The position numbers were made by a program, and so were the translations under genes. This document shows positions 9,906 to 60,253 of a stretch of DNA of 64,000 nt, piece by piece (position 1 is the first letter of the stretch; every line of letters begins with the position of its first letter). Origin of the DNA: Candidatus Micrarchaeota archaeon (GTDB lineage: Archaea > Micrarchaeota > Micrarchaeia > Norongarragalinales > Norongarragalinaceae); NCBI GenBank assembly GCA_016207165.1, contig JACQQD010000005.1, positions 31,871-95,870 on the forward strand, read 5' to 3'. Below the pieces are notes generated by a model. The model worked only from the letters and a program-made list of their open reading frames with translations. It searched no databases and had not been told where the DNA came from.

Positions 9906-12900
9906 GTGGCGGACCTAAAAGAACAATACGAGGCGTGGATGACGTCGCTGGAAGAAAAAGGCATCCCCCAACCCCGTCTCCTCGTCCCGCTGCTGGTCGT
10001 CGTCATCGCCGCCGGCTTGCTGTTTTACGCCGTCCCCAACCTCTTCACGCCCCAGTCCACCGTCACATTCACCGTGCAAAATGAAGAAGGCCAAGCCGTG
10101 CCCAACGCCGCCGTCGAACTCACGGCCAACACCGAAACAAAAACCAGCCAGACGGACGCCTTGGGCAAGGTGTCATTTACCGTGCCAGCCGACCAACGCC
10201 TCCGCGTGAAAGTCACGCACTCGAAATACGAGGAGTACATCAACAACCAATTCAGTTACACGCAAAGCCAAGTCCGGCTCCAAGCCAAGTTCGCCGCCGC
10301 CGAACAATCCTACACCGTGCAAGTCGTCTCCGACCAAGGAAGCCCGCTTCAGGACGCGTTGGTCGTGTTCAGCCTCGATGACGGAACCAGCCGCATCCAG
10401 ACCACCGACGCGTTGGGCCAAGCCCAAATCAACGTGAATCTGCCCAACCACATCAGCATCAAAGTCACCAAAGAAGGCTACAAAACCGAACAGGAAAGCG
10501 TGGCCGCGTCCGACCAGTCCCCGCGCCGGGAAGTCACGCTACGGAAAATCCAGGACGAAAAACCACAGACCCGCACCGTCACGCAACTCGTGCGCGTCGA
10601 AGACCAAAACGGCAACGCCGTCGACGACGTGAGAGTCACCCTGCTTGACGAAACCACGCAAATCGCCTTTGACACGGCGTACACCGACGCCTTCGGACAA
10701 AGCCGGTTTGACGACGTGGACGCGTCCAAGCGGTTCACCGTCTCCGTGGTGGACGACCGCGAACGCTTCTCCGCGTATGCAACGCCGTTTGCCTACACGG
10801 CCAGCAACTCCGAAGCCATCACCGTCCGCTTGACGGCCGTCCAACGAGAAAAGCAACTGCAAATCACAGTCAAGGATGACAAAGCCAACAGCGTGGCGGA
10901 CGCCACGGTGCGCGTATACGACCGCGCCAAGAAGCACTTCATTTCTTCCAAGGCCACCGACTCCGCCGGAAAAGCGGTGTTCCAACTGGAAGCCGAAAGC
11001 GCGTACGTGACCGTCTACAGCGAAGGCTTCCTGCCGGAAGTCTTCTTCGCCAAGAACACCGACGAAAAAACAGTGACCCTCAAATCCGCTGAAGGCGCGA
11101 CTGTGCAAGTTGAAGTCACGGTTCAAAAGCAATTGGATCCCCAACCCAACGCCGACGTGCAACTGTTTAGCTCGGATGGCTTCCCGTTGGGCGTGCCGGA
11201 ACAAGCCACGGGAACCGACGGCATCGCCACCTTTCAAATCCCCCGCAAAAACCAGGGATTTTACGCCGAAGCCGCGCTGGGACTGGATTTGGGCCGAAGC
11301 GACATTGCGGTGGCATCCAACGATGCGGAACTCTTCATCCACTTGGAATCACCCAAAGCCACCCTGAAAGTCAACGTGCGCGATGCCGGCACCAAGCAGA
11401 AAACAAGTCAAGCCGTCGTCCGGTTGGTGGACTCTACGACGAAAGCCGAATGCACGACCACCAACGGCTCCTGCACCCTGAACGTGCCCACGGACGTTGA
11501 ATTCCGCGTCCTCGTCGAGCACCCCCAGTATTTACCATACCAGTCCGCCCTCCAATTCATTCCCGCCGGCACCCCAAACCAGGACCACGACGTGGCATTG
11601 TACCCCAAAGCGCTCACCGACGGCGCCGCGGTTTCCTTCCAGGGCTTCTTTACTTCCGAGGGACAGCGCGTGCATGAAACCGGCAACGCCCAACGCCTCG
11701 AAGCCCGCTTTGCCGTGACGCTGCCAGTAGCCAAACCCGAGGACGCCGCGCGCTTTACCGTATGGGTGGGTCAGAACGACGTGGACCAAAACAACGCCGG
11801 CATTTTGTCCGTGGACGGGCCCGACTCGTTTTACACCGGCACGACGCCGCTTCAAGCCTGCAACCCCTCGGAGAACCTCGCCGAAGACCTGGGTTTGGCG
11901 CAGTGGGCGGTTTTTGATTTCCCGAACGGCTTTTCCGGCACGCAACAAGTCATCCTGGACGTCTTCGTCAAGCCCGACGCCAAAGCGTCCGACGACGTGG
12001 TCTTGGAATACCGCTTGCACGGCATCCGCAACAACCTGCCCGTCACGGTGCCACTGGACGCCGAAAAACTCCAAAGCCTCTTGGGCGGAACGGTGACGGA
12101 CGCCGACTTCTGCGGCGCCAAAACCCAAACGCAAAAATTGCCTATAGCCAAAGACGTGCTGACGTGCGACGAGAACCTCTGCCAGAAAGCCGTGTTTGAA
12201 ACCGCCGACGGCACGCGCCTGACCAACGCCCCCGAAATCACGTTGGGGCAAACATTCACCTTGGACTTGGCCTTCGTCGGCCTTCAAAGCGGCGTGGCGC
12301 AAGTCACCGTGGACGCGCCGGAATCCGTGGACTTGCTCTCGTTACAACCCCTAACCCCCTCTACCAACGCGAACAACTCGGAACTGGCCACCAACCGCCT
12401 GACGCTTCCCCTGGATGCCGCCGCCGGCGAAAAAGCCGAACTGCAACTGAAGGCCAAAGCCGTGCGGGCCACCCCGTTTGCCGAACTGCTGGTAACGGTA
12501 CAGGACGTCGACGGATTCGAAACGGAAATCCGGAAAAACGTCCTGGTTTCCGGCACCAACCGCTTCTCCGTACAAACCAACCCCGAGGAACTGGAAGCCG
12601 GACTCCAACAACTCTTGCGCGTCACGGTCAAAGACCAACTCCAACGCCCCATCGAGGACGCCGTGGTGACGTTGTACGAATGCGACGGCGTACCTTTAAA
12701 CGGCCAGGAACTGGAAATCACGGAAAACCAGAACGGCGTGTACACGCAACGCATGGAGCCTTCCTCCCTGGGAATCATCGGCGTGCGCGTGCAACACATT
12801 GAATTCAAAACATTCGACGAATGCATTCTCCCCGTAACCGCCACGGACTTTTTGGAAGCCGAACCCGAATCCCTGACTCTCACCGGCGACACCAAAACGG

Positions 12901-15900
12901 AGTCCGTCACCGAAAAAATAACGGTTTCCAGTTTAATTGACGTCAAAAGCAAGCTCTCCTCCACCATTTCTTGTAGCGACGAAAACGACGAGAAAGCATC
13001 AGCTCCCTTCACCGTCTCTCCCAAAGCGCTGACTCTTAAAGACACGGCCACCGTGGACTTGACGGCCAAGAAGACCACGTTCAAAGGCCGATGCGACGTC
13101 GTGTTCACCGCCAAAGCCAACAACGACAACATCGCCGCCGCCATTGTGGCGGTTCAAGTCGACTTGAAGGGCCCGCCCAAACCCGAAGAACTCTGTCCCC
13201 AAACCGCCCGCTGCCTGCCGCCATCCGACGGAAGAGAACTGCGTTGCACGGCGTCACGCCTTTTGTGCGACGATGAAACGCTGTCTTGCTTCCAATGCAA
13301 CCTGGGTCCCCAAACCATTCCCTCCCAAATCAGTTTGAGCGTGTCGAACTTCCAAAGCGACGACGTGAAAACCTTTGCCGTCGCGCTGGAAGACCAACCC
13401 GAGGAATGCCGAGTGGAAGGCTTCAAAAACAATCCCGCCCTCTCGCCCTACGGCCCAAGCAACCCCTACAGTCAAAACCCGTTCCAGCAATACCAAAACC
13501 CGTACTACTCACCCTACCAATCCACCAACTTCAACTACTGGAATTACCAACCCAACGGCTACCAACACTACCCAACGAATCCGTTTGACGTGGCCACCCC
13601 CGAAGAGCGCCAAGGCGACTTCCAATCCCTCCTCTCCCAACTCTCGCCCTATTGCCAACGCTTTTTGCACCAATACACGCCCTACAACGCGTACCAGAAC
13701 TACTACGGCACCAACTACCAAGACCCCTGGAACACGCAAGGCTCACCCTACCAATCCCAGTACCAGTATCCCCAAACCTCACAATACCAGTACTCGCAAA
13801 ACCGGCCCACCGTCTCGGTGACGGCCACCTGCACGCGCACCGAAATCGTGGTATCCGCCCAGTACACCGGCGGCGACCAACAATTTGGCGCCGGCCTTGG
13901 CGGCCAACAACGCGGCATCTTGCTGGTGCGCGCCGGCGGACAAACCAAGCAAGTTCCCGTCACCGTCCAAGTCCAAACCCCCTCCCAACCCGGATTCTTC
14001 CCGCAAGGCTATCCCACCAGCCAAATCCCACCCCAATGCCTGTACGAACTCCAGCAACTCCAACAAAAACAGCAAACCCAGGAAGAGGGTCTTGACGCCT
14101 CCGGATTGCCGGACGCCATCGACGTCTACTACAACAAGTACACCGGAAAAGGCGGGTGGGAGCGCGAACTCAAGCCACCCCAGAACGCGCAAGACCTCCA
14201 ACGCACCCAGCCGACGGGTTCCAAAGCCCGCGTGACAGTAGGGTATACCGGCAACAAGCTACGCGTGGACGTGCAATGCCCAGTTGACAAGGAAGGAGCC
14301 GTGGATTGCGGCGGAACCGCGGAATTCCAAGCCACCTGGCGCATCGGCCAAGTGCAGCAAACCCAGAAGAAACGCACCATCCGCTTCCTGGAAGACCCCT
14401 TCAGCCCGGCTGTCCTCCAACTCGTGGTGGGCCAAACCGGAAAAGACGCCGCGCAATACAGCGTGCAAGCCAACACCGACTTCAGCAAAGCCAAATGCCA
14501 AGGCGTTTCCGGCGTGACGTGCTCCGGCGACTCCATCACCGCTACAACTTCAACCGCAATCAACAAAGACCTGGAAATCTCGGGCACCGACGACTTCGCC
14601 ATCCGCTTCATCCCCGTCCGCGCCTCCACCATCCAGAACCGCGTCGACATCAATTTGGAAGACAAACAAAGTGACGCCGTCACCATCGCTTTTCAACCCA
14701 AACTCTTAGTCGAACCCACGTGCGAACCCGACGAAAAACTCAAAACCGTTCTGACCATCGAGAAATGCACGAAAGACGGCGTGGTTTTGAAAGCCGCGCG
14801 CCCCCCAAGCACTGAACCCGTCAGCGGCACCATCAAATTCAGTTTCGCCGACAGCGTTCGGGCGACCACCGACAACCCGCCCTCCATTACGGTTGTTGTG
14901 ACGCGGACGGAACCCAAGCGTCCAACCATTAACAGCGTGGAACCCCGCATCGCCGGCCAGGAAAGCACCATCGTCTACACGTTCCCCGACGGCTCGGACG
15001 CCGAAAAAAGCAAGATCACCGTCACCCTGAAAAAAACCGATGGAACCGACGCCGGCACCAAGGAATTCAAGAAAGCCGACGGATTGGCGCAAAGCGGGTC
15101 CATCAAGTACACGCCGCAAGTCGTGGGCACCTTGAACGTGCAGGCCGTCACGGAAATCAACGGAAAAGAAGTCAAATCCGACGTTTTCCCCGCCGAAATC
15201 ACCGTCAAAGAACAAGCGCAAACCACGGACACGACGACGCCCGGCAAGTCCACGGACTCCGGAATTTTGTCCAACTTGCAAGTCAGCAAGCCCAGCGGGC
15301 CAGTCCCAATGACGATCACCGCCACGTTTGCCGGCGAGAAAACGACCTGGAAGAAATACGTGTTAAGCGTGCAAGCCGATGCGTCCAACAAAATCACGCC
15401 GTTTGAAAGCCAAACCAAGGACGTCGACTTTAGTGGTACCACGTTCACGCTGAAGCTTTACCCCAACACGCCGGCGATAACTTCTGGCGCCTACGACGAA
15501 ATCAAGACGCTACTTGAAAAACACGGCAAGGCCACCTTCACGCTGGAGGCGTTGGACGCCAGCAATAAGGTAATCGGGAAAAGTTCCATCGAGAAGACGG
15601 CAGCAGACCTCGGCTTTACAGCCAGCACGGCCCCGACAAGCCCCAGCGCGCCGGGAACGACGACCGGAGCGTACTTCGTCGCCGCGAGCCTGGACGCGTC
15701 CCAGCATGCAGTGGTGAGCGGCTCCGAATCGGTGGAACAAAGAATCACGATGCGATTTAACAAGGAGGCGCTGGACAAGCTCAACAGCCCGGGGTTGAAG
15801 TTTTCCATTCACTATTCGGAAGACCTCGAAGCCACAGACGACGTCATCGGATCCAAGGCATTGGCATTTGAAACCAGCGTCCTGCCGTTGACGAAAGCCA

Positions 15901-16760
15901 AGGGCACGGGCGCCACGCGAATCATATCGTATGCGTTTCAGTTTAACGGCTTTAGGTGGCCGAACGGTAAACCTGCGATGGGCAAAACAGGTTCAGGCAA
16001 ATACTACGTAAAAATTACCCTCGTTTCAGAAGGAAAAACCGTAGAAGAATTCGAAGGCGTCGACAAAACGAGCTTGCAGTTCACTATTGCCAAGCAATTG
16101 GCTCTGGATGCGACCTCGCAAATCCTTGAGAAAAACCCAGTCGGATACCCGCCGGGATCCTACATCGTATTGTTGACAAAGAAAGAATTGTCCAGTGGCT
16201 TGGGTCCACCCGTAACACTTGAATTTGGTGATGGAGCGACCAAAAAAACGCTGGCTTTGCATTACCTATACTACCGGCAAGCACACGTCTCAATTTTCAG
16301 CGGTGAAGGAACAGATTCGCAAATTGCATGCGGGTATTACTGGCTTGGGCGGGGCAGTGACATGCGGTTGGAAACGAACTGGGGCAGTTCAATACCCGCA
16401 ACAACGGCCGCGACGCTAACAGGAATCGGTGTGACCGGAGCCGGTGTTCTGCACGTAACAGGAATTGCAGGCGCCGCGACGGCCGGGACTGGATTCGCAT
16501 TGGGAAGCATCCCGACCATTGCAGCACTGATTCCAGGTCCAGGATGGGCCGCAATTGCAATAGGAGGCGTAGTTGCCGGCGGAGTGGTAGCCTATAATTA
16601 CTTCAAGTCGGATACGGTCACCTGTGGCAACGCGGGACTCAAAGTGACACTCAAGCTGGCGACGTTCCCACCCGGAGCTACATACGAAACGGGCTGGAAA
16701 TGGGGCCGAGGATACGAAAATGCGCGAGTGGTCCTAATCGTGTCTCCAGTCACCTCGTAA
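9906..16760 (+). CDS. giant (2284 aa) membrane-anchored surface/adhesin-like protein with repeated beta-sandwich (carboxypeptidase-regulatory-like) modules
   Basis: Single long ORF. It has an N-terminal TM helix (LLVPLLVVVIAAGLLFYAV) and recurring modules of the type 'V.V.d..G.p...A.V......tD..G...f.v'. A Q/N/Y/P-rich insert and a near-C-terminal PGW+TM+K segment are also present. Confidence 0.85.
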   Translation: MADLKEQYEAWMTSLEEKGIPQPRLLVPLLVVVIAAGLLFYAVPNLFTPQSTVTFTVQNEEGQAVPNAAVELTANTETKTSQTDALGKVSFTVPADQRLRVKVTHSKYEEYINNQFSYTQSQVRLQAKFAAAEQSYTVQVVSDQGSPLQDALVVFSLDDGTSRIQTTDALGQAQINVNLPNHISIKVTKEGYKTEQESVAASDQSPRREVTLRKIQDEKPQTRTVTQLVRVEDQNGNAVDDVRVTLLDETTQIAFDTAYTDAFGQSRFDDVDASKRFTVSVVDDRERFSAYATPFAYTASNSEAITVRLTAVQREKQLQITVKDDKANSVADATVRVYDRAKKHFISSKATDSAGKAVFQLEAESAYVTVYSEGFLPEVFFAKNTDEKTVTLKSAEGATVQVEVTVQKQLDPQPNADVQLFSSDGFPLGVPEQATGTDGIATFQIPRKNQGFYAEAALGLDLGRSDIAVASNDAELFIHLESPKATLKVNVRDAGTKQKTSQAVVRLVDSTTKAECTTTNGSCTLNVPTDVEFRVLVEHPQYLPYQSALQFIPAGTPNQDHDVALYPKALTDGAAVSFQGFFTSEGQRVHETGNAQRLEARFAVTLPVAKPEDAARFTVWVGQNDVDQNNAGILSVDGPDSFYTGTTPLQACNPSENLAEDLGLAQWAVFDFPNGFSGTQQVILDVFVKPDAKASDDVVLEYRLHGIRNNLPVTVPLDAEKLQSLLGGTVTDADFCGAKTQTQKLPIAKDVLTCDENLCQKAVFETADGTRLTNAPEITLGQTFTLDLAFVGLQSGVAQVTVDAPESVDLLSLQPLTPSTNANNSELATNRLTLPLDAAAGEKAELQLKAKAVRATPFAELLVTVQDVDGFETEIRKNVLVSGTNRFSVQTNPEELEAGLQQLLRVTVKDQLQRPIEDAVVTLYECDGVPLNGQELEITENQNGVYTQRMEPSSLGIIGVRVQHIEFKTFDECILPVTATDFLEAEPESLTLTGDTKTESVTEKITVSSLIDVKSKLSSTISCSDENDEKASAPFTVSPKALTLKDTATVDLTAKKTTFKGRCDVVFTAKANNDNIAAAIVAVQVDLKGPPKPEELCPQTARCLPPSDGRELRCTASRLLCDDETLSCFQCNLGPQTIPSQISLSVSNFQSDDVKTFAVALEDQPEECRVEGFKNNPALSPYGPSNPYSQNPFQQYQNPYYSPYQSTNFNYWNYQPNGYQHYPTNPFDVATPEERQGDFQSLLSQLSPYCQRFLHQYTPYNAYQNYYGTNYQDPWNTQGSPYQSQYQYPQTSQYQYSQNRPTVSVTATCTRTEIVVSAQYTGGDQQFGAGLGGQQRGILLVRAGGQTKQVPVTVQVQTPSQPGFFPQGYPTSQIPPQCLYELQQLQQKQQTQEEGLDASGLPDAIDVYYNKYTGKGGWERELKPPQNAQDLQRTQPTGSKARVTVGYTGNKLRVDVQCPVDKEGAVDCGGTAEFQATWRIGQVQQTQKKRTIRFLEDPFSPAVLQLVVGQTGKDAAQYSVQANTDFSKAKCQGVSGVTCSGDSITATTSTAINKDLEISGTDDFAIRFIPVRASTIQNRVDINLEDKQSDAVTIAFQPKLLVEPTCEPDEKLKTVLTIEKCTKDGVVLKAARPPSTEPVSGTIKFSFADSVRATTDNPPSITVVVTRTEPKRPTINSVEPRIAGQESTIVYTFPDGSDAEKSKITVTLKKTDGTDAGTKEFKKADGLAQSGSIKYTPQVVGTLNVQAVTEINGKEVKSDVFPAEITVKEQAQTTDTTTPGKSTDSGILSNLQVSKPSGPVPMTITATFAGEKTTWKKYVLSVQADASNKITPFESQTKDVDFSGTTFTLKLYPNTPAITSGAYDEIKTLLEKHGKATFTLEALDASNKVIGKSSIEKTAADLGFTASTAPTSPSAPGTTTGAYFVAASLDASQHAVVSGSESVEQRITMRFNKEALDKLNSPGLKFSIHYSEDLEATDDVIGSKALAFETSVLPLTKAKGTGATRIISYAFQFNGFRWPNGKPAMGKTGSGKYYVKITLVSEGKTVEEFEGVDKTSLQFTIAKQLALDATSQILEKNPVGYPPGSYIVLLTKKELSSGLGPPVTLEFGDGATKKTLALHYLYYRQAHVSIFSGEGTDSQIACGYYWLGRGSDMRLETNWGSSIPATTAATLTGIGVTGAGVLHVTGIAGAATAGTGFALGSIPTIAALIPGPGWAAIAIGGVVAGGVVAYNYFKSDTVTCGNAGLKVTLKLATFPPGATYETGWKWGRGYENARVVLIVSPVTS

Positions 16761-19530: not shown

Positions 19531-21309
19531 ATGTTGCGTCAACCCATCGTGTGCATTTTAGGACATGTGGACCACGGTAAAACTTCACTCCTTGACTCCA
19601 TCCGCCAGACGCGGGTGGCCGCCAGGGAAGTCGGCCACATCACCCAGCACATCGGCGCATCGGAGATCCCGTTGGATGCCATCCAGTCCTTCTGCAAGGC
19701 GGTCCTGGAGAAAATGCCGTTGAAGTTCACCATTCCGGGCTTGCTGTTCATCGACACGCCGGGCCACGACGCGTTAGCGAAATAGCGTCGACGCGGCGGC
19801 AGCATCGCCGACATCGCCGTTCTGGTCGTGGACGCGACCAAGGGCGTTGAGCCGCAGACCGTGGAGGCCATCGAAATCCTCAAAGAGTACAAGACGCCGT
19901 TTTTGGTGGCGTTCAACAAACTGGACGCCTTGTCAGGCTGGAAAATGGGGGGCGCGTCGTTTAGCGAGTCTTTTTCCCGGCAGGCCCCGCACGTCCAAGA
20001 GGACTTGGACGCCCGCATCTACCGATTGATCGGGAAACTCTACGAATACGGCTTCAACGCCGACCGCTTCGACCGCGTCGAGGACTTCACCAAACAGATC
20101 CTCATCGTGCCCGTCTCGGCCAAAACCAAGGAAGGGCTCAGCGAGCTGTTGTTGTACGTGGCCGGATTGGCGCAACGCTTCCTGGAAAAACGGTTGGAAC
20201 TGCATTCCGACGAGAAAGCCAAAGGCAGCATCCTGGAAGTCAAGGAAGAGCAAGGACTGGGAACGACGTTGGACGTCATTTTGTACGACGGAATCCTGCA
20301 CGCCCACGACTCCATCGCCTTTTCTTCAGTGGATGGGCCAGTCACCGCGTCCGTCAAGGCCCTGCTTAAACCCCAAGCCATGGACGAAATGCGTGACCCC
20401 CGGCACAAATTCGCCTCGGTCAAAAGCGTTTCCGCGGCCGCTGGCGTGAAAATCGCGTGCGAGCACGCGGATTCCGCGGTCGCCGGGTCAAGCCTGTTTG
20501 GCGTAGATGAAACAACCAAAAAACAGGCGCTGGCACATCTTTCCGAAGAACTTTCGGGGCTGGTGTTTGAAAGCGACACGCAAGGCGTGGTTCTGAAAGC
20601 CGATTCCCTGGGGAGTCTGGAAGCCATCATCAAATTGTTCCGAAGCCACGGCATACCCGTCAAGAAAGCCGGCATCGGCAAAGTGACTAAAAACGACGTG
20701 GCGCTCGCCTCCGCCATCAAACAAACCAAACCATTCTTGGGCGTGGTCTTCTCGTTCCACCAAAAAACCGACGAGGATCTCCTGAAGCTCGCCGAACGCG
20801 ACGGCGTGGCCGTGTTCCAAGAAAGCATCATCTACAACCTCTTGGAGGGCTACACGCAGTGGAAGGACGCCGAAGAAGCCAAGACGCGACGCGAGGCGTT
20901 CTCATCATTGTCCCTTCCAGCCAAAATCAAGGTGCTTTCCGGCCACTGCTTCCGCGCCTCCAGCCCCTGCATCACCGGCGTTGAAGTCTTGGGCGGACGC
21001 ATTCGAAAAGGCGTGGCCTTGATCAACGAAAACGGTGAGGTGGTGGGCACCATCCGCGCCATCCAGGACAACAAGAAGCCCGTGGACGAAGCCAAAACCG
21101 GAAAGCAGTTGGCCGTCAGCATCGACGGACCCGTCTTCGGCCGCCAAATCCAGGAAAAACAGGAGCTTTACGTCGACATCGACAAAGAGTCCGCCAAGAT
21201 TTTGGAATCCAAGTACGCCGACGCGCTTTCCGCGGAAGAACACGAACTATTAAAAGAAATCAAGAAAATCAAGGGATTCCTCTTCACGCCAAGCGAGCCG
21301 AAGCGTTAA
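19531..21309 (+). CDS. infB: translation initiation factor aIF5B, interrupted by an in-frame TAG at 19783-19785
   Basis: Track ORFs 19531..19785 and 19828..21309 are in the same frame. The read-through gives [12 protein letters not shown]...[36 protein letters not shown]..., a contiguous GTPase G1-G4 region followed by the C-terminal domains. Confidence 0.8.
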
Positions 21310-27422: not shown

Positions 27423-30092
27423 TCAGTCAACCGGGATAATTATCTGGGTTTCGCTGGACGGATCCCCTTGGCAGGCCATCTGGCCGTCTGGGCGCACGGT
27501 ACAAACTTGCTGATCCGTTGATTCAAAAAGAAGGGGTCGTGAGACCTCTTGAATGACCTGGGTTTTCACTTCATCCAAGAGCAGATCGGCCAAAGGTACG
27601 GACCAACTGAACGTGGCAAGACCGGAGAGCAGGAAAGCGGCGTCATACAGTTGTTCTGCGGAATTTTGCAAGATTTCAGTTCCATTCGCACTTATCCAAG
27701 CCCGGTGGGTTCCCAAGCCGAACACGCCGAAAATTTCAGAGCTGACTTTGGCATCGGTGCCCGCCTCGTTGATCGTGCAGTGCGGAAAAACCGTCTGACC
27801 GGTAGTGTACGTCTCTTCCCGACAGTGCCAGATTCCTTCCGGCGACTTCCAGCATGCCTGCGGATAGTACACCTCATAACTTGTCGGGTACGGACAGAAC
27901 CGCCACACGTAGGATTGTTCCTGCTTGTTTCCATCGGAATACTCAACATAGCGATAAGCCAAAATCGGCGTCACCGGACGCAGTAAATGGGTTACGGGTT
28001 CACCGTACTTGAAACGCCAGGCCGTGGTTCTGATGACATCCAAAGATTCTGGCAACGGGATGCCGGACGCACACGTCGTTCCCAAATCGGCCTGGCAACT
28101 CGTTGGAATGTCCGGAATCACGGACACGGGTTGAAACGTCATCCCGATTCTCGGCGTTTCCAGCTTCGCCAAAAAGTCGGCGGTTTGAGAAACCGGCATG
28201 AGTTCGCTGCAATTCTGGCCCATGCATATTTGGCAGACTTCATGCACGCACAGGAAATTGAAACGGTCGCTGGAAGTTTCTACGGGCAAAAACAACTTCG
28301 AGTCAACAGGAACCGGAGTCGGAGACGCCGTCGGCGTGGGTGAAGGGGAGGAAGAGGCGGTAGAGGCTCCGACAAAAAGGCCGCTTGCGTAATGGCTGAC
28401 CAGTTGCGAGTTGGTCAAGCTGGAAAGGCCAAGGCCCTCCGGCGGCACGACGGCAAGCGGGACTCCGAAGTTGTTTCCAAGTTCGGCCAGAGGAAAGCTT
28501 CCATCTGCCACCAAATTGTATTCAAACGCGAGCGAGTCCGGAAAGTCATACAGGTAAAACGCGGTGTTGGACGCGCCGCCCAAGGATTCAAGCCCAAACG
28601 AAGCGGGTTTTCCGGGTTCCAGCCACGACGCAGGCACCGTCACCCACACTACGCCCTCGCTGTAAACGTTTGAATCCCACCACTTGTTTTGGAGGTACAC
28701 GCGGCTTTCGTCGCCTTGAACCAAATTGGAGGAAATGGCGGGAAAACCTTCCAGAAGCGTGTGGCCGTTGAGCGTCAACCGGAACGGCGCGGAGTAGCCC
28801 GCCGGAACGCCCACGCCGGCGTAAAAGGCGAACGTCACGGTCCCGTTCGTGAAGTCTGTTGGAACGGCCTGCGTTTCCCAGAAAAACTTTTGTTGCGCGG
28901 CCAGCGGGTAAAACCAGTACGCGTGGCTCTCGCCTTGTGGGCCAGTCCGGTATCCTGAACCCCGGTTCACGTACCCCACGTTGGGCGTGTAGGTGGCGCG
29001 GGTGTATCCTTCCAATGCCTGAACCCGAAGGGGCACCGGTTCAAGAAAAACGGGGTCAGCCGGAGCGTTTTCAACAGCGGGCGCATACTTCAAGCGTACG
29101 GAGTAGGTCCTTCCAAGCCGGGTCAGGGCGGATCCGTCAAAGAAGAAATCGGTACTCAAGTCGGCCTGGTCAAAGGAAAGGAATCCGACGGATTGGCGCA
29201 TTTTTAGTCCTACCCACGCCGTGCCGGAAACGGAAACATTCGGTAGTGCGGCGTACTCCGTGTGCGGGACGCCGTTCACGGCGGCCGTTGAAGTGGCGTG
29301 CGCAAGCAAGGCGCCTGGTTTTCCGTCCTGGTCGGCCCAAACCGACACGTCCAGCACGTCCCCGTCCACGCCGCGGTCAAAGCCAACCAGCTCGACTTCC
29401 AGAAGTTGGACGGATGCGCCCAAATCCATTTTCTTGGCCAGCCAATAACCCGTTGGAATGATGTTGTCGGTGTAGATGTAAGAAGCGTTTTCGTTCTGCC
29501 AGGTTTCAGTAGCCATGACCGGCTTTGGCTTGGGCGTCGGGCTGAGCGTGGGCGACTCCCTGGGCAACGGCGTAGCCGTCGGAGACGGCTCCGGAGGCGG
29601 CAACAAAAATGCGAATTCGTCGTACTGCACGCGCACGCTGTACGTTCGGCCCAAGCGCGTCAAGGCATTGTTGCCTTCCCAGAAGAAATCGGTTCCAGAA
29701 TCGATGGCATCAAACCAAAGAAAGCCGACGGACTGCTGCATGCGAACGCCGACCCACACCGGGCCGTTGGCCGGAGCTGAAACCGGAACGGATTCCCAGT
29801 GGGCCTGGCCAGTCACGGAAACGGCTTTCGAAGCAGAAGCCAGAAGCGTCCCGGGTTTTCCTTGATCGTCTGCCCATACAAAAACGGAAACGACGTCCCC
29901 ATTCACGCCCCGGTCAAACCCGTAAAGCGAAATCTCGTTGAGCACCGCGGCCGAAGGAAAATCCACGTGTTTGACGAGCCAGTAACCCGTCGGGATGATG
30001 TTATCCGTGTAGGGACCCGACCCGTACTCGTTTTGCCATGTAGCGGCTCCCACAAAAACGAGCAGCACCAAGAAAAGAAAAAGCCACCGCAT
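27423..30092 (-). CDS. secreted protein with two tandem ~150-aa N-terminal domains and Pro/Thr/Ser linkers
   Basis: 889 aa with signal peptide MRWLFLFLVLLVFVGAA. A duplicated block reads TWQNE..YTDNIIPTGYW...GFDRGV.GDV..V.VWAD..GKPG.LLA...RLGRTYSVR. Confidence 0.8.
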   Translation of the reverse strand: MRWLFLFLVLLVFVGAATWQNEYGSGPYTDNIIPTGYWLVKHVDFPSAAVLNEISLYGFDRGVNGDVVSVFVWADDQGKPGTLLASASKAVSVTGQAHWESVPVSAPANGPVWVGVRMQQSVGFLWFDAIDSGTDFFWEGNNALTRLGRTYSVRVQYDEFAFLLPPPEPSPTATPLPRESPTLSPTPKPKPVMATETWQNENASYIYTDNIIPTGYWLAKKMDLGASVQLLEVELVGFDRGVDGDVLDVSVWADQDGKPGALLAHATSTAAVNGVPHTEYAALPNVSVSGTAWVGLKMRQSVGFLSFDQADLSTDFFFDGSALTRLGRTYSVRLKYAPAVENAPADPVFLEPVPLRVQALEGYTRATYTPNVGYVNRGSGYRTGPQGESHAYWFYPLAAQQKFFWETQAVPTDFTNGTVTFAFYAGVGVPAGYSAPFRLTLNGHTLLEGFPAISSNLVQGDESRVYLQNKWWDSNVYSEGVVWVTVPASWLEPGKPASFGLESLGGASNTAFYLYDFPDSLAFEYNLVADGSFPLAELGNNFGVPLAVVPPEGLGLSSLTNSQLVSHYASGLFVGASTASSSPSPTPTASPTPVPVDSKLFLPVETSSDRFNFLCVHEVCQICMGQNCSELMPVSQTADFLAKLETPRIGMTFQPVSVIPDIPTSCQADLGTTCASGIPLPESLDVIRTTAWRFKYGEPVTHLLRPVTPILAYRYVEYSDGNKQEQSYVWRFCPYPTSYEVYYPQACWKSPEGIWHCREETYTTGQTVFPHCTINEAGTDAKVSSEIFGVFGLGTHRAWISANGTEILQNSAEQLYDAAFLLSGLATFSWSVPLADLLLDEVKTQVIQEVSRPLLFESTDQQVCTVRPDGQMACQGDPSSETQIIIPVD

Positions 30093-30187: not shown

Positions 30188-30829
30188 ATGACCAATATAC
30201 GCAACGAGGTTTGGAAGCGCATTGACGCCGACCCCTCCATTCAATTGGACTTGGAACGCGGCATCGTCAACGTGCGGGCCTTGGCTCGGCACTTCCAGGA
30301 CACGGGCGTTCCGGGAAGCAAGGAGGCCGTCATCTCCGCCATCCGAAGATACCCCCGCACGTCCGCCAAGTCGTGGTATGAAACGGCTCGAAGCATCGTC
30401 GCCCAGTCCCACGTCTCCACGAAAAGCCACATCGTCCTCATCGAATTAAGCAAAGGCGGGGAAGTGCAAGACATCCTGGCGGAGCTGTTTGACCTCGTGC
30501 GCTACGAAAAGGGGGAGACGCTGCGCATCGTCCAAGGCGAGGAATCCATTCGGTTGCTGGTGGATGAAAAGAACCGCGAAAAGATGCTGGAAAAAATACC
30601 GGAAAAAAGCGTGCTGAACGTCTACAGGGACTTAGCGGAAATCAACGTGCATTTGCATCCCCAAGGGGCCAAAACCCCGGGCATCGTGTACGTGATCAGC
30701 GGCGAGTTGGCGCGCCACCACATCAACATGTATGAAATGCTGGGCGGGGCACCGGAAATCCTGATTTTCGTCGAGGAAAAAAAGTTGATGGCGGCGTACA
30801 ACGCCTTGTTCGAGTTGTGCCACCAATAA
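30188..30829 (+). CDS. hypothetical protein, possibly with a C-terminal ACT-like regulatory domain
   Basis: 213-aa ORF. The ACT-like assignment is by general resemblance only. Confidence 0.45.
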   Translation: MTNIRNEVWKRIDADPSIQLDLERGIVNVRALARHFQDTGVPGSKEAVISAIRRYPRTSAKSWYETARSIVAQSHVSTKSHIVLIELSKGGEVQDILAELFDLVRYEKGETLRIVQGEESIRLLVDEKNREKMLEKIPEKSVLNVYRDLAEINVHLHPQGAKTPGIVYVISGELARHHINMYEMLGGAPEILIFVEEKKLMAAYNALFELCHQ

Positions 30830-30831
30830 AT

Positions 30832-32190
30832 CTAAATGATTTTTTCGCCGGAGTCCTTCTTGACCAAATGAATGACGTTCACGGGGCAGGACTGGGCGGC
30901 TTCCATGTTCGTGTCGAAATCTTGGTCCTGGATGTCCAACTCTTCCGTTTCGTCATCCATCTTCTTTCCGCCGACGACATCGCTTTTCCCGTCGTCATTC
31001 ATCGTCCAGAAATCCGGGGAAACGCCCGCGCATGCCGCGCAGTTGTGCACGATGCCGGCCGAGGTGCAGTAATCCTCGATTCCAGCGACTTCCAGGTTGT
31101 AGACGACTCCGGAATAGGGCGTTTCAATGACGTCCATTATAGGAAGCAAAAGCCGCGATTCGGTTTGAATCGAGTTAATTTTTAGTGCGGAAGCGGTTTT
31201 AGCGGTTTGGCCGTTGACCAACGCCTCCAGGTGGGCTACGTACGGATTGCATACTTTTGGTTTGAACGAAGGCCTGTGGCCCGGGCGCGGTTTGGATTGC
31301 TCCATGGAGCTGACGATGTCCTGACGGAGCAAAAGCAATTTCATTTGTTCGGCAAGCCGGCGGGAAATGGTGCTGTATTGCGCACGGTTAGAACCAATCC
31401 AGCCGTCCCCACGCCAAAGACCCTTAATCAAGTCCCTTTGAACCCATGGCTCCGCCAACATCATTTCAGCAGGAACGTGCTTGTTTTGCGCTCCATGACC
31501 AAACCATTCAACAAAGGCTTTGGCAATCAACGAAGAGTTTGCCAAGACAGTAATGGTGTTCTTTCGGGGTATTCGCCGAATCGTTGCCTTCAATCCAAAC
31601 ACGTGGTCCAAGAGTTGCGCCGTATCCTGGGCCAATTCCATTTCCTTGCTCCCAAAAGTGAAAAGAATCTGCCGACAATACACGGTTTCCGGTTTTCCAA
31701 TGGTATTTCCTTCCGACACGTAGTAACCCGCCAACCGGAAGAATTCAGGCGTAAACGCTACCGTTTTCTGTTTCAACCCGTTTCTGGAGGCGGTTGAAAA
31801 CGTCAAGAAGTTCACGGACGCCGACCTAACGGGCTTGGGATAAGTCACGTAATCGAGTTTCTTGAGGTTGCCTGCCTCCGTCCACTCAAATTCAAACGGC
31901 GCCCGGTTATGCTCGTATTTGGACTTCCGGCGGACAACGAGCACTTTGTGTTCTTCGGTGATGTGAATGGAACCCATGGAACGGATTTTCAGTTCAAAAA
32001 TGCGGCCCACGTGTTTGTGGGCCATGACGCCGGTGACAGCTTGATACGATCCGTTCGAGGTAAGCACCAAATCTCCTACCTTGATTTCCGAAATGGGTTT
32101 GGCGCCATATGGACCAACGATTAGCGTATCGGGAGTCAAGCACCCAATGCAGTTTGGCCGGTCGTGTTGAATCTTGTAGCCCATAGGCAT
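30832..32190 (-). CDS. small [4Fe-4S]/[3Fe-4S] ferredoxin (Pyrococcus type) interrupted by an intein
   Basis: The exteins MPMGYKIQHDRPNCIG + CAACAGVSPDFWTMNDDGK...AAQSCPVNVIHL rebuild a CxxCxxC...CP ferredoxin. Confidence 0.85.
   Translation of the reverse strand: MPMGYKIQHDRPNCIGCLTPDTLIVGPYGAKPISEIKVGDLVLTSNGSYQAVTGVMAHKHVGRIFELKIRSMGSIHITEEHKVLVVRRKSKYEHNRAPFEFEWTEAGNLKKLDYVTYPKPVRSASVNFLTFSTASRNGLKQKTVAFTPEFFRLAGYYVSEGNTIGKPETVYCRQILFTFGSKEMELAQDTAQLLDHVFGLKATIRRIPRKNTITVLANSSLIAKAFVEWFGHGAQNKHVPAEMMLAEPWVQRDLIKGLWRGDGWIGSNRAQYSTISRRLAEQMKLLLLRQDIVSSMEQSKPRPGHRPSFKPKVCNPYVAHLEALVNGQTAKTASALKINSIQTESRLLLPIMDVIETPYSGVVYNLEVAGIEDYCTSAGIVHNCAACAGVSPDFWTMNDDGKSDVVGGKKMDDETEELDIQDQDFDTNMEAAQSCPVNVIHLVKKDSGEKII
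31042..32142 (-). mobile_element. 367-aa intein with a LAGLIDADG homing-endonuclease domain
   Basis: Block A is CLTPDTLIV, block B is SIHITEEHKVLV, the LAGLIDADG motifs are FFRLAGYYVSEGN and LIKGLWRGDGWIG, and the terminal block VVYNLEVAG...SAGIVHN is followed by a +1 Cys. Confidence 0.8.
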
Positions 32191-32204
32191 TCACTTAACA
32201 ATAG

Positions 32205-33668
32205 TTAATTGTCGTTGGCTTTCTTAAATGCGTTGCGGTTGGAAAGAACGCCCAACAGCAACCGCACGCCAAAACCGGTGGCTCCAGAGGCTAAATAAGG
32301 TTTTGGGCTGGTGTTCCAAGCCATGCCGGCAATGTCCATGTGTGCCCAAGAACCGGAGACGAATTGCTTCAAAAACGCGGCGGCGGTAGACGCGCCGGCA
32401 TAGCCTTTGGGGTGGCCCACGTTTTTCACGTCGGCAAACTCGCCTTTGATTTGGTCTTCGAATTCCTGGACAGGCAACCGCCAAACCAAGTCACCGCTTT
32501 GCTTGGAAGCATGCTCGACTTGCTTCAAAAATTCGTCGTCGTTTCCAAACAATCCCGCGAATTGCTCGCCCAAGGCAATGCAACAGGCACCGGTAAGCGT
32601 CGCCAAGTCAACGACGTGTTCCGGCTCGTACTGGGAATGCACGTAATGCAGGGCGTCAGCCAGGACCAGTCTTCCTTCCGCGTCGGTGTTAAGCACTTCA
32701 ATGGATTTGCCGGACAACGAGGAAACGATGTCCCCCGGCCGATACGATGAACCCGACGGCATGTTTTCGGCAAACGCGACCACGCCCACCACGTTGCCCT
32801 TGATTTTCAGGGCACTCAAGGCGCTCATGGCCCCCAGCACCGCGCAGGCACCGGACTTGTCGTACTTCATTTTGTCCATGTCCGCGGACGGCTTAATGGA
32901 GATGCCGCCGGAATCAAACGTAATGCCTTTGCCGACCAATGCAAACCAGGGGTCCTTCTTGGATCCACCGGCGTATTCCAACACCACAAGCCGCGGCGGG
33001 TTCAAACTTCCCTGCCCTACGGCCAAAAGCGCGTGGAAACCCTTCTTTTTGAGGGTCTTTTCATCCAGCACCGTGACTTTGAGTTTGGCGTTGCGGCCCA
33101 TTTTCCGGGCTTGCTCGGCCATGTATGCGGGGGTGGCGACGTTGCCGGGCTGATTGTTGACGTCTCGCGCCCAAAGCACCGCGTCGCTTACGACCAAACC
33201 GCTTCGAAGTGCCGCATGCGCACGCTCGTCCTTGGCCACCAAAACGACTTTCTCCAGCAACGCGTCTTTGGCTTTCTCCGTCTTGAAAACATCAAATCGG
33301 TATGCCGCGTCCCGCAACCCCTGGACCGCGAAAGAAACGCACGCCGAATCCAAGTGCGTGACATCCACGGCCACCGCTTTCGCGCCAAACCGCTTCAAAA
33401 CAGGGTAGGCGGCCCCAATAGCTCGCATGAACTGGTGGGGCAAAAACGCGTCTTTAGGGCCCAAACCAATGAAAACGGCTTGCTGGAAATCGTACGTCTG
33501 TCCGGGTTTGCCCTCGAAGAGTTTGCGCTTCTTGGCATCCGTTAGCGCGTGCTGGAGCTTGGCTGGAAGTCCAGAGTCGGATTGGTCTTGGAAACGCGGG
33601 ACAATTCGGGCGTCAGCGTGCACGCTGTAAAACGAGGCGATTTGCACCTTGAAATCCATATGAAGCAT
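32205..33668 (-). CDS. pepA: M17 leucyl aminopeptidase
   Basis: Contains VGKGITFDSGG and the NTDAEGRLVLADAL signature. The start was trimmed to M at 33668 or 33659 because the upstream part overlaps the divergent gene. Confidence 0.9.
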   Translation of the reverse strand: MLHMDFKVQIASFYSVHADARIVPRFQDQSDSGLPAKLQHALTDAKKRKLFEGKPGQTYDFQQAVFIGLGPKDAFLPHQFMRAIGAAYPVLKRFGAKAVAVDVTHLDSACVSFAVQGLRDAAYRFDVFKTEKAKDALLEKVVLVAKDERAHAALRSGLVVSDAVLWARDVNNQPGNVATPAYMAEQARKMGRNAKLKVTVLDEKTLKKKGFHALLAVGQGSLNPPRLVVLEYAGGSKKDPWFALVGKGITFDSGGISIKPSADMDKMKYDKSGACAVLGAMSALSALKIKGNVVGVVAFAENMPSGSSYRPGDIVSSLSGKSIEVLNTDAEGRLVLADALHYVHSQYEPEHVVDLATLTGACCIALGEQFAGLFGNDDEFLKQVEHASKQSGDLVWRLPVQEFEDQIKGEFADVKNVGHPKGYAGASTAAAFLKQFVSGSWAHMDIAGMAWNTSPKPYLASGATGFGVRLLLGVLSNRNAFKKANDN

Positions 33669-33765
33669 TGCAACGATTTCACCCGCTTTAAGGGTTTCGG
33701 CCCCAAAAAGCGCAATTTTTAAAACCTCCAACACCATTAAAATAACGATTGTTAAGGCGAAGGAC

Positions 33766-34332
33766 ATGAGCGTACAAACCGTTTCCAAGGACATGACCAT
33801 CGGCGAAGTCGTCCAGTCCCACCCCGAAGCCGTGGACGTCATGTTGAGCCGGGGCTTTCACTGCGTGGGTTGCCACGTGTCGCCGTACGAGACCATCGAA
33901 CAAGGCGCCCGAGGCCACGGCATGTCCGAGGCGGACGTGGATGACTTGATTGCGGAGATCAACGCCAAAATCCAGGACAACCCCGTAGTCGTCAAGCCGC
34001 CGGAACAGCAAGGCGTCGAGTTGACCGACGAGGCCGCGGACAAAATCAAGTCCCTCATGCAAAAAGAAGGCAAAACCGGTTTCGGTCTTCGCATTTCCGT
34101 GGTCGGCGGCGGCTGTGCCGGAAACTCGTACGAAATGGATTTCGACAACCCGAACCCGCAAAACGACCGCGTGTTTGAAACGCACGGCGTCAAAGTATTC
34201 TACAACAACTTGTACCACGACCAAATCCGTGGCACGCAAATCCACTACCGCGACAGCCTCCAAGGCGGCGGTTTCGTCATGCGCAACCCCAACGCCAAAG
34301 CCTCGTGCGGCTGCGGCAACAGCTTCTCGTAA
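33766..34332 (+). CDS. fusion of a DUF1858-like redox-disulfide domain and an IscA/HesB-type Fe-S assembly domain
   Basis: The N-terminus reads MTIGEVVQSHPEAVDVMLSRGFHCVGCHVS. The C-terminus reads GLRISVVGGGCAGNSYEM...NPNAKASCGCGNSF. Confidence 0.8.
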   Translation: MSVQTVSKDMTIGEVVQSHPEAVDVMLSRGFHCVGCHVSPYETIEQGARGHGMSEADVDDLIAEINAKIQDNPVVVKPPEQQGVELTDEAADKIKSLMQKEGKTGFGLRISVVGGGCAGNSYEMDFDNPNPQNDRVFETHGVKVFYNNLYHDQIRGTQIHYRDSLQGGGFVMRNPNAKASCGCGNSFS

Positions 34333-53035: not shown

Positions 53036-53332
53036 GGGTGGGGCGGTGCACGGCTGTCGGTAGCCTGGGTTCAAAGCCTGGGTGGCTGAGGAAGCTCCGC
53101 ACACTATTTCGACTGGAAACAGTGGTCAAAAACCCGTGCGCGGCAACGCGCCAACTCTAAGGGTTGATTTCCGGAACAGAAACGATATCGTCGGGTTTCG
53201 CAGGATGAAGTCCGCTGACGTTGAAGCCCAGTACGAGTGAAACGCGCCGGGAAATGGGGAGTGCAAGGCCTTTGAGCCGCTAAGTCGAATGCCGTGGTCA
53301 ACAGAATGCGGGCTATGGCCGCCCCCACCCGT
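53036..53332 (+). ncRNA. rnpB: RNase P RNA (archaeal type A-like)
   Basis: The termini pair (GGGTGGGGCGG...CCGCCCCCACCC). Conserved regions are GAGGAAGCTCCGCAC (CR-I/P4), AACAGAAACGA, GAGTGAAAC and ACAGAATGCGGGCTAT (CR-V). A T-tract follows. Confidence 0.8.
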
Positions 53333-60181: not shown

Positions 60182-60253
60182 AGCCCCGGACGAGGATCGA
60201 ACTCGTGACCCCCTGTTTACGAAACAGGTGCTCTACCGCTGAGCTACCGAGGC
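60182..60253 (-). tRNA. tRNA-Thr(CGU), no intron
   Basis: Hand-folded as GCCTCGG TA GCTC AGCGGTA GAGC A CCTGT TTCGTAA ACAGG GGGTC ACGAG TTCGATC CTCGT CCGGGGC T. Confidence 0.85.

Follow-up and report, generated by a model that had tools for sequence, protein, structure and literature searches.

The 64,000-nucleotide stretch of contig JACQQD010000005.1 analysed here (the window) carries on its minus strand, at 30832..32190, an open reading frame (ORF) in which a small ferredoxin is split by a LAGLIDADG intein. We consider it highly probable that this is the ferredoxin gene of a DPANN, Micrarchaeota-type groundwater archaeon, invaded in frame by a functional canonical LAGLIDADG intein. The ORF is uninterrupted over 452 codons and has three parts: a 16-amino-acid (aa) N-extein, a 367-aa intein and a 69-aa C-extein. 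Excising residues 17-383 fuses ...DRPNCIG with CAACAGVSPDFW...SCPVNV, and the junction peptide expected from precise removal is PNCIGCAACAGV. The insertion point lies between Gly16 and the second cysteine of the CxxCxxC cluster-binding motif, within C-I-G-C-A-A-C. An initial annotation of the window had placed the ORF on this strand and at these coordinates, with residues 17-383 as the insert; both the translation and the empty site of a related locus (L002, below) bear this out.

Precursor and annotation

The mature ferredoxin, 83–85 aa long, is about one quarter of the size of the intein that interrupts it (Table 1). A second ATG, at 32184, may be the true start, as judged from orthologues that begin with MGYKI or MAYRI. 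Across 2.4 kb around the gene (30300..32700) there are zero differences between the window and an independent assembly of the same groundwater metagenome run, which rules out an assembly artefact at this locus. In the public annotation the locus is represented by P0001 (30832..32067, minus strand), which is 411 aa long, begins at ORF residue 42 and lacks the N-extein and the first 25 residues of the intein. Where an insertion lies so near the N-terminus of a small ferredoxin, annotation as a bare LAGLIDADG protein is a likely error, and such ferredoxins are hence likely to be under-annotated.

The M17 leucyl aminopeptidase gene upstream adjoins the ferredoxin gene in every related locus, and the two genes are probably co-transcribed.

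Table 1. Coordinates of the ferredoxin precursor, its parts and the upstream gene in the window.
Feature	Coordinates	Strand	Description
Precursor ORF, complete	30832..32190	-	452 aa plus stop; N-extein, intein, C-extein
N-extein	32143..32190	-	aa 1-16, MPMGYKIQHDRPNCIG
Cys14, first cluster ligand	32149..32151	-	position -3 relative to the intein
Intein	31042..32142	-	aa 17-383, 367 aa, CLTPDT...AGIVHN; 1101 bp missing from the empty locus L002
Splicing block A	32104..32142	-	nucleophile Cys1 = aa 17, codon 32140..32142
Splicing block B	31936..31974	-	GSIHITEEHKVLV; TxxH = T78 and H81
LAGLIDADG homing-endonuclease domain (approximate)	31192..31824	-	aa ~123-333; short linker instead in mini-intein allele P0005
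LAGLIDADG motif 1, LAGYYVSEG	31708..31734	-	acidic residue at catalytic position, E160
LAGLIDADG motif 2, IKGLWRGDG	31402..31428	-	acidic residue at catalytic position, D262
Splicing blocks F and G	31042..31110	-	GVVYNLEVAGIEDYCTS-AGIVHN; penultimate His382, terminal Asn383, F:4 = Asn365
C-extein	30835..31041	-	aa 384-452, CAACAGVSPDFW...SCPVNVIHLVKKDSGEKII
+1 Cys384, second cluster ligand	31039..31041	-	in C-extein
Cys387, third cluster ligand		-	in C-extein
Cys435-Pro, fourth cluster ligand	within 30874..30891	-	in C-extein
M17 leucyl aminopeptidase gene, upstream	32205..33842	-	ends 14 nt before the ferredoxin start

The ferredoxin host

By sequence and model, the host gene is a single-cluster [4Fe-4S] ferredoxin of the Fer4_15, or Pyrococcus furiosus, type, with predicted roles in cluster binding and electron transfer. 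The spliced 85-aa product scores above the Pfam cut-offs for Fer4_15 (E = 3.2e-13, 50.6 bits, cut-off 22.4) and Fer4_13 (E = 8.3e-10, 39.7 bits, cut-off 24.5), has the ligand motif C14-I-G-C17-A-A-C20...C68-P, and can be aligned over its whole length to the P. furiosus ferredoxin of the PDB (E = 1.6e-8). Its best PDB match is the P. furiosus D14C variant. The +1 Cys of the window protein stands at P. furiosus position 14, where the wild-type ferredoxin has Asp, and is predicted to be the second cluster ligand; this agrees with the earlier proposal that the +1 nucleophile of splicing doubles as an iron-sulfur (Fe-S) ligand.

The closest intein-free orthologue, P0058, is 83 aa long and 93% identical to the spliced product. 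Its AlphaFold model (predicted local distance difference test score, pLDDT, 96.6) finds its best PDB matches in the single-cluster ferredoxins of P. furiosus, B. thermoproteolyticus, T. maritima, H. thermophilus and M. tuberculosis. Profile score, alignment and model matches thus all uphold the initial view of the exteins as a Pyrococcus-type ferredoxin. P. furiosus and other single-cluster ferredoxins (2z8q, 1siz, 1iqz, 1vjw) share with the window protein the C-I-G-x-A-x-C...C-P motif and the fold, whereas the family to which the window protein belongs has a longer acidic insert than P. furiosus-type ferredoxins. No intein is known in the ferredoxins represented by these PDB entries. No second ferredoxin-like ORF was found in the 64-kb window.

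Splicing and endonuclease features of the intein

The insert is, on sequence and structural modelling, a canonical class-1 intein with a two-motif LAGLIDADG homing endonuclease. In Pfam the full precursor matches LAGLIDADG_3 (E = 6.8e-17) and Fer4_15, together with Intein_splicing and Hint_2, both of these below the gathering score. In NCBIfam its matches are limited to intein-containing families and the N-terminal domain of inteins. An alignment of the intein with 26 relatives (alignment A2, 27 sequences), in which columns were scored as conserved when invariant or at least 90% identical, contains all of the expected residues. N383 and the T78 and H81 columns of block B (T78-E-E-H81) are invariant. 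Cys17 (Cys1, in CLTPDTLIV), H382, C384 and the motif residues E160, G161, D262 and G263 are conserved at 90% or more, and K237 and P240 of block D are either invariant or conserved at that level. The splicing blocks and both LAGLIDADG motifs had been reported from the window sequence, and they are conserved among the 27 related sequences. The essential splicing residues are intact and the exteins align to ferredoxins, the two points on which the first description might have failed.

In the AlphaFold model of the precursor the intein has pLDDT values mostly above 90 and the exteins are disordered. A Foldseek search with this model returned the TliVMA intein at the top (8.5e-22), followed by the PI-PkoII, PI-SceI and PI-PfuI inteins. 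The endonuclease domain alone matched I-DmoI with a TM-score of 0.72–0.78, normalised to the target, and its LAGLIDADG fold was also matched in PI-SceI and PI-PkoII. At the sequence level, phmmer matched the intein to residues 262-410 of PI-PkoII. TliVMA (7qsu/7qss), PI-PkoII (2cw7), PI-SceI (1vde) and PI-PfuI (1dq3) therefore have the same Hint plus double-LAGLIDADG architecture (Foldseek E = 1e-13 to 1e-21), but sequence identity to the window intein is 11–17% across the intein matches, and their hosts are a V-ATPase, DNA polymerase and ribonucleotide reductase rather than a ferredoxin. PI-SceI and PI-PfuI have extra DNA-recognition regions. With the window intein as query, phmmer detected no other related intein in the six-frame segments of the window, and a search of viral contigs gave no close relative.

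Empty sites and allelic states

A search with the spliced sequence returned about 290 intein-free orthologous proteins, of which the best 120 are 83–122 aa long. Among the matches listed, those with names are called ferredoxin and come from the DPANN groups Woesearchaeota, Micrarchaeota and Diapherotrites, the closest being from Micrarchaeota. HDRPNCIGC.AC and C.VNVIH are invariant across these intein-free orthologues. The closest named relatives of both the ferredoxin and the M17 peptidase are from Candidatus Micrarchaeota metagenome-assembled genomes (MAGs) from groundwater, and one such groundwater MAG carries the empty allele. Together with the archaeal RNase P RNA of the window and its occurrence in groundwater runs, this makes a Micrarchaeota member of the DPANN the most likely source.

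The contig that encodes P0058, L002, has the same gene order as the window: M17 aminopeptidase, ferredoxin, an ACT-domain gene on the opposite strand, a protein of about 886 aa, and glutaredoxin. Its DNA is 82–84% identical to the window on both flanks of the intein and lacks exactly 31042..32142. The junction TGCATTGGG/TGCGC (a slash marks the insertion point here and below) is identical in L002 and the window, and the empty site of the L002 type reads CCAAACTGCATTGGG/TGCGCTGCATGTGCC. The absence of exactly this segment from L002 therefore confirms the boundaries of the intein independently, and L002 and the intein-free orthologues together settle the placement of the insertion within CxxCxxC, a check that the initial annotation had called for.

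That annotation had also suggested a search for other ferredoxin-hosted alleles. Five further clusters from independent metagenomes (P0002, P0003, P0004, P0187 and P0005) have inteins inserted at this very position. That of P0005 is a mini-intein of 173 aa, in which intein residues ~107–317, the endonuclease domain, are swapped for a short linker. Empty, full-length and mini alleles correspond to the three stages expected in the life cycle of an intein. Among GTDB species representatives, none was found with an intein at the ferredoxin site; only empty alleles are present.

Extein and intein identities give the same two sub-lineages. Lineage A consists of the window, P0002 and P0187, with P0058 as a nearby empty allele; lineage B consists of P0003, P0004 and the mini-intein P0005, with the nearby empty alleles P0060 and L051. 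This argues that inheritance within the ferredoxin gene has been largely vertical.

Four runs of groundwater DNA metagenomes (X1–X4) were compared at the level of contigs, not raw reads. No intein-free variant of the same strain was present in these contigs, a level of comparison at which rare variants are possible. Runs X1 and X4, from the same groundwater samples, do contain a ferredoxin gene without an intein (CIGCSAC), which belongs to another, related organism; its contig aligns to window positions 30989..31032 and 32144..32168 and has a similar depth (25.8 against 22.3). The intein could potentially home into this gene, although the recognition site there has diverged.

Relatives at other iron-sulfur cysteines

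The nearest relatives outside ferredoxins are inteins in the beta subunit of 2-oxoacid:ferredoxin oxidoreductase (OFOR), at 35–40% identity over the full length. They occur in Nitrososphaeria (Thaumarchaeota) and other uncultured archaea, at the site WCPG/CGDF. The spliced form of one of them, P0012, aligns to OFOR beta of S. tokodaii and places the site between Gly14 and Cys15. In OFOR beta, the Cys12-Cys15 'CXGC' loop ligates a [4Fe-4S] cluster (PMC5020499). The site is thus in the ligand loop, and ferredoxin and OFOR beta are both split at the CxG/C of an Fe-S motif. The OFOR-beta inteins have the same architecture, length and type of site as the window intein, but in another host protein and another DNA target. 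Their sequences are in the databases; no paper describing them was found in the literature searched.

Inteins hosted by IscU (GNPV/CGDVM, aligning to A. fulgidus IscU) and by IspG (AVMG/CIVNGLGEA, aligning to A. aeolicus IspG) are also among the nearest relatives, at Fe-S-type cysteines. We take the IscU cysteine to be a scaffold cysteine and that of IspG to be the third cluster ligand. Further relatives are found in thioredoxin-reductase-like CxxC proteins and in a PAPS-reductase-family protein (WTE/CDVWLY), the latter a sequence match in which no ligand role is assigned to the +1 Cys. More distantly, NuoI-like two-cluster Fer4 proteins are interrupted: the P0209 intein precedes the third cysteine of CxxCxxCxxxCP, and P0197 has two inteins in one such motif, before the first and third cysteines (GR/CVFCGF/CVDACP). 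Another distant relative, P0245, splits a 114-aa dicluster ferredoxin of Sulfolobus/Thaumarchaeota type before its first cysteine (DE/CIADGIC), and appears from its sequence to be a second, independent ferredoxin family with an intein. SufB likewise hosts distant relatives, at HYVEG/CTAP. Of the 72 full-length representatives examined, about 23 interrupt Fe-S or redox proteins. The others occupy well-known intein hosts, for example UDP-glucose dehydrogenase, RNA polymerase A'' and methyltransferases.

The relatives thus lie at Fe-S cysteines of at least six other protein families, which suggests how inteins may pass between unrelated genes that resemble each other only in short motifs. In a neighbour-joining phylogeny with 100 bootstraps the ferredoxin inteins are monophyletic (100%), and the SufB inteins fall in another clade, grouped with the NuoI-like inteins. 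The deeper nodes that would define an 'Fe-S clade' have 5–12% bootstrap, and a single Fe-S-specific intein clade is not claimed. A broader proposal would be that an undescribed archaeal intein radiation has specialised on Fe-S-ligating or redox-active cysteine motifs, its hosts being single-cluster and dicluster ferredoxins, NuoI-like proteins, OFOR beta, IscU, IspG and thioredoxin-reductase-like CxxC proteins, and that the ligand cysteine and Cys1 form a disulfide or metal trap which gates maturation by redox or iron status. We regard this as rather improbable.

Constraint, splicing and origin

Comparison of the window with L003, both intein-bearing, gave ratios of nonsynonymous to synonymous substitution (dN/dS) of 0.026 for the exteins, 0.10 for the intein and 0.075 for the endonuclease domain, values that are rough, dS being saturated (>1). 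Strong constraint clearly acts on the ferredoxin gene even while it carries the intein. That the exteins have been kept functional despite the insert argues that the intein splices, and on these sequence data splicing almost certainly works. The endonuclease, for its part, probably retains its activity or lost it only recently; its targets would be intein-free alleles.

Following standard class-1 chemistry, the 452-aa precursor would be translated whole and its Hint domain would fold. Cys1 would then undergo an N-S acyl shift, the +1 Cys would attack the thioester (transesterification) and Asn383 would cyclise. A final S-N shift would create the native peptide bond and yield an 83–85-aa ferredoxin and a free 367-aa intein. 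Cys14 is parted from Cys384, Cys387 and Cys435 by 367 residues, and the native [4Fe-4S] site would therefore form only after splicing. The insertion site would suit a selfish element because it is in the most conserved stretch of the gene and has an obligatory cysteine at +1. Within the ferredoxin family the element would have been inherited mostly vertically, with loss of the endonuclease in one lineage and empty alleles in close relatives. A jump of the intein between similar Fe-S sites, the CxG/C of OFOR beta and that of ferredoxin, is plausible from the sequences.

Besides the saturation of dS, several points weigh against this account. The splicing chemistry is read from the sequence here, on a standard model, and endonuclease activity is deduced solely from motif retention and purifying selection. 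The divergence of the intein tracks that of its host, which fits vertical descent over recent homing. The sister link to the OFOR-beta inteins has 52–59% neighbour-joining bootstrap, and the ferredoxin and OFOR-beta DNA targets share 10–14 of 24 central bases, including GGG/TGCG. Finally, block F:4 is Asn365 (VVYNLEV), where many inteins have Asp. Asp at this position is frequent and is not essential in all inteins. The clade conserves Asn365 at 90% or more, among others in inteins that lie in essential enzymes and in those of OFOR beta, IscU and IspG, and from these sequences we treat it as a clade-specific variation and no bar to class-1 status.

Is the gene dead, then, or the intein alive but no longer mobile? 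A non-splicing intein in a ferredoxin pseudogene, or an assembly chimera, would be in keeping with the Asn at F:4, with a public gene call that starts at residue 42 and omits the N-extein, and with at least one local assembly error elsewhere in the window. It is largely refuted by the extein constraint between two intein-bearing alleles, by an ORF that runs without a break in six clusters obtained independently from different metagenomes, by the identical sequence in an independent assembly, and by the conservation of the F:4 Asn in relatives within OFOR beta, IscU and IspG. This makes a dead gene very improbable. A fixed intein deserves more weight, and we hold it to be possible if somewhat unlikely. 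Here splicing works, the endonuclease is inactive or repurposed, and the element would persist for the sole reason that imprecise deletion would destroy the ferredoxin. The co-variation of intein and extein identities in two host sub-lineages, indicating vertical inheritance, is in its favour, as are the deletion of the endonuclease domain in P0005 and the lack of any near-identical intein among the divergent hosts and viral contigs seen. Against it, conservation extends to E160 and D262 as well as to blocks C, D, E and H, and the endonuclease domain has a dN/dS of about 0.075, as low as that of the splicing domain, which is unexpected for a decaying domain. Empty target alleles are also present in close relatives, and the samples themselves contain another organism's ferredoxin gene without an intein. 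We therefore favour an intein that splices and whose endonuclease is, or recently was, able to home.

Might splicing be redox-gated?

The junction C14-I15-G16/C17 places Cys-3 and Cys1 in a CxxC arrangement, and the same is true of all five other intein-bearing clusters. A regulatory layer could be added to a functional intein if the host exploited redox- or metal-gated splicing. Under oxidising conditions a disulfide between Cys14 (-3) and Cys1, or between Cys1 and Cys+1, would be the trap; alternatively, a metal would be held by the 4–5 junction cysteines. The first splicing step would be blocked, and the oxygen-labile ferredoxin would mature only in a reducing cell. The geometry resembles that of documented redox traps, so redox-gated splicing is chemically reasonable and, by analogy, plausible. 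The junctions of the OFOR-beta relatives are literally C-P-G/C. An engineered Cys-3 made the Ssp DnaE intein redox-dependent (PMC3922620), and in the Pab PolII intein a Cys1-Cys+1 disulfide is inhibitory (PMC3922620, PMC10663303). In related loci the ferredoxin gene is beside a glutaredoxin gene, and L003 has superoxide dismutase, peroxiredoxin and DJ-1/PfpI genes nearby as well. That the host makes use of such gating is nevertheless unlikely. The cluster motif of the host fully accounts for the junction cysteines, whose presence does not in itself point to selection for a trap; the ~290 orthologues and the close relatives without the intein indicate that the host has no need of it; and the IscU- and IspG-hosted relatives have no cysteine at -3.

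Two described inteins are among the closest parallels. In the Pab MoaA intein, a native Cys-3-Cys1 disulfide acts as a 'redox trap' that controls activity (Callahan et al. 2011, via PMC3922620, PMC10663303). Like the window intein, it is of class 1, has an oxygen-sensitive archaeal Fe-S host, a CxxC of Cys-3 and Cys1, and a cysteine at +1. Its host, however, is a radical-SAM enzyme and not a ferredoxin, no close sequence relationship between the two inteins could be established, and redox control is demonstrated for MoaA whereas it is only proposed for the window intein. The Mtu SufB intein also has Cys1 and Cys+1 in a host that is part of the Fe-S cluster machinery, a large scaffold protein unlike the small ferredoxin. 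Its splicing is stress-sensitive (Topilina et al. 2015, cited in PMC4760082), with kinetics given in PMC8891592.

Novelty and significance

In a standard survey, 61–67% of intein hosts were in COG category L (PMC4760082). The initial statement that inteins usually occupy proteins of replication, repair and nucleotide metabolism agrees with this, but an Fe-S host is less exceptional than was implied: Mtu SufB, Pab MoaA, the intein-containing radical-SAM Tes family in NCBIfam and the Fe-S relatives of the window intein itself are all of this kind. The literature searched contained no description of an intein hosted by a ferredoxin, IscU, IspG or OFOR. The ferredoxin host, the insertion inside CxxCxxC and so small a host are new with respect to that literature; the type of element is itself well known.

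Three features make an unusual combination: a host of only 83–85 aa, a junction inside the metal-binding motif, and a +1 nucleophile and a -3 residue that are both ligands. This offers a compact natural system in which to study a possible coupling of splicing to Fe-S insertion, and a possible redox dependence of splicing conferred by a native CxxC junction. Both matters bear on a long-standing debate over inteins as purely selfish elements or as occasional regulators. Of wider use than this one example may be the set of related inteins at Fe-S cysteines, which may deserve systematic study.

Other observations in and around the window

The intervals beside the ferredoxin gene vary in content. 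Between the ferredoxin and glutaredoxin genes are the ACT-domain gene (30188..30829, plus strand) and a gene for an 889-aa protein (27423..30092, minus strand) that has no Pfam match and seems by eye to be internally repeated. Both genes occupy the same interval in the window and L002. They are missing from L003 (9354..9441), and in L004 (8772..9465) a single gene for a 178-aa protein takes their place.

The aIF5B/IF-2 gene (19531..21309, plus strand) has an in-frame TAG at 19783..19785 within the GTPase domain, between GHDALAK and RRRGG. Independent contigs from three of the same runs have TTG (Leu) at these positions and four differences within 13 nt, and the region adjoins a pile-up of conserved sequence from many organisms. 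For the TAG, a local error of consensus or assembly is the likeliest explanation, rather than recoding or a pseudogene. The aIF5B of L003 (16022..17353; 1111 aa) has a LAGLIDADG intein that the window and L004 (588 aa) copies lack. The ferredoxin gene is thus not the only one at which these close relatives differ in intein content.

An archaeal RNase P RNA (53038..53328, plus strand; 90.9 bits) and a tRNA-Thr(CGT) (60182..60253, minus strand) are the sole Rfam and tRNA matches in the window. Lastly, an ORF of 2284 aa (9906..16760, plus strand) has N-terminal CarboxypepD_reg, Big_1 and alpha-2-macroglobulin-like Ig domains and a hydrophobic C-terminus, and probably encodes a giant surface protein.

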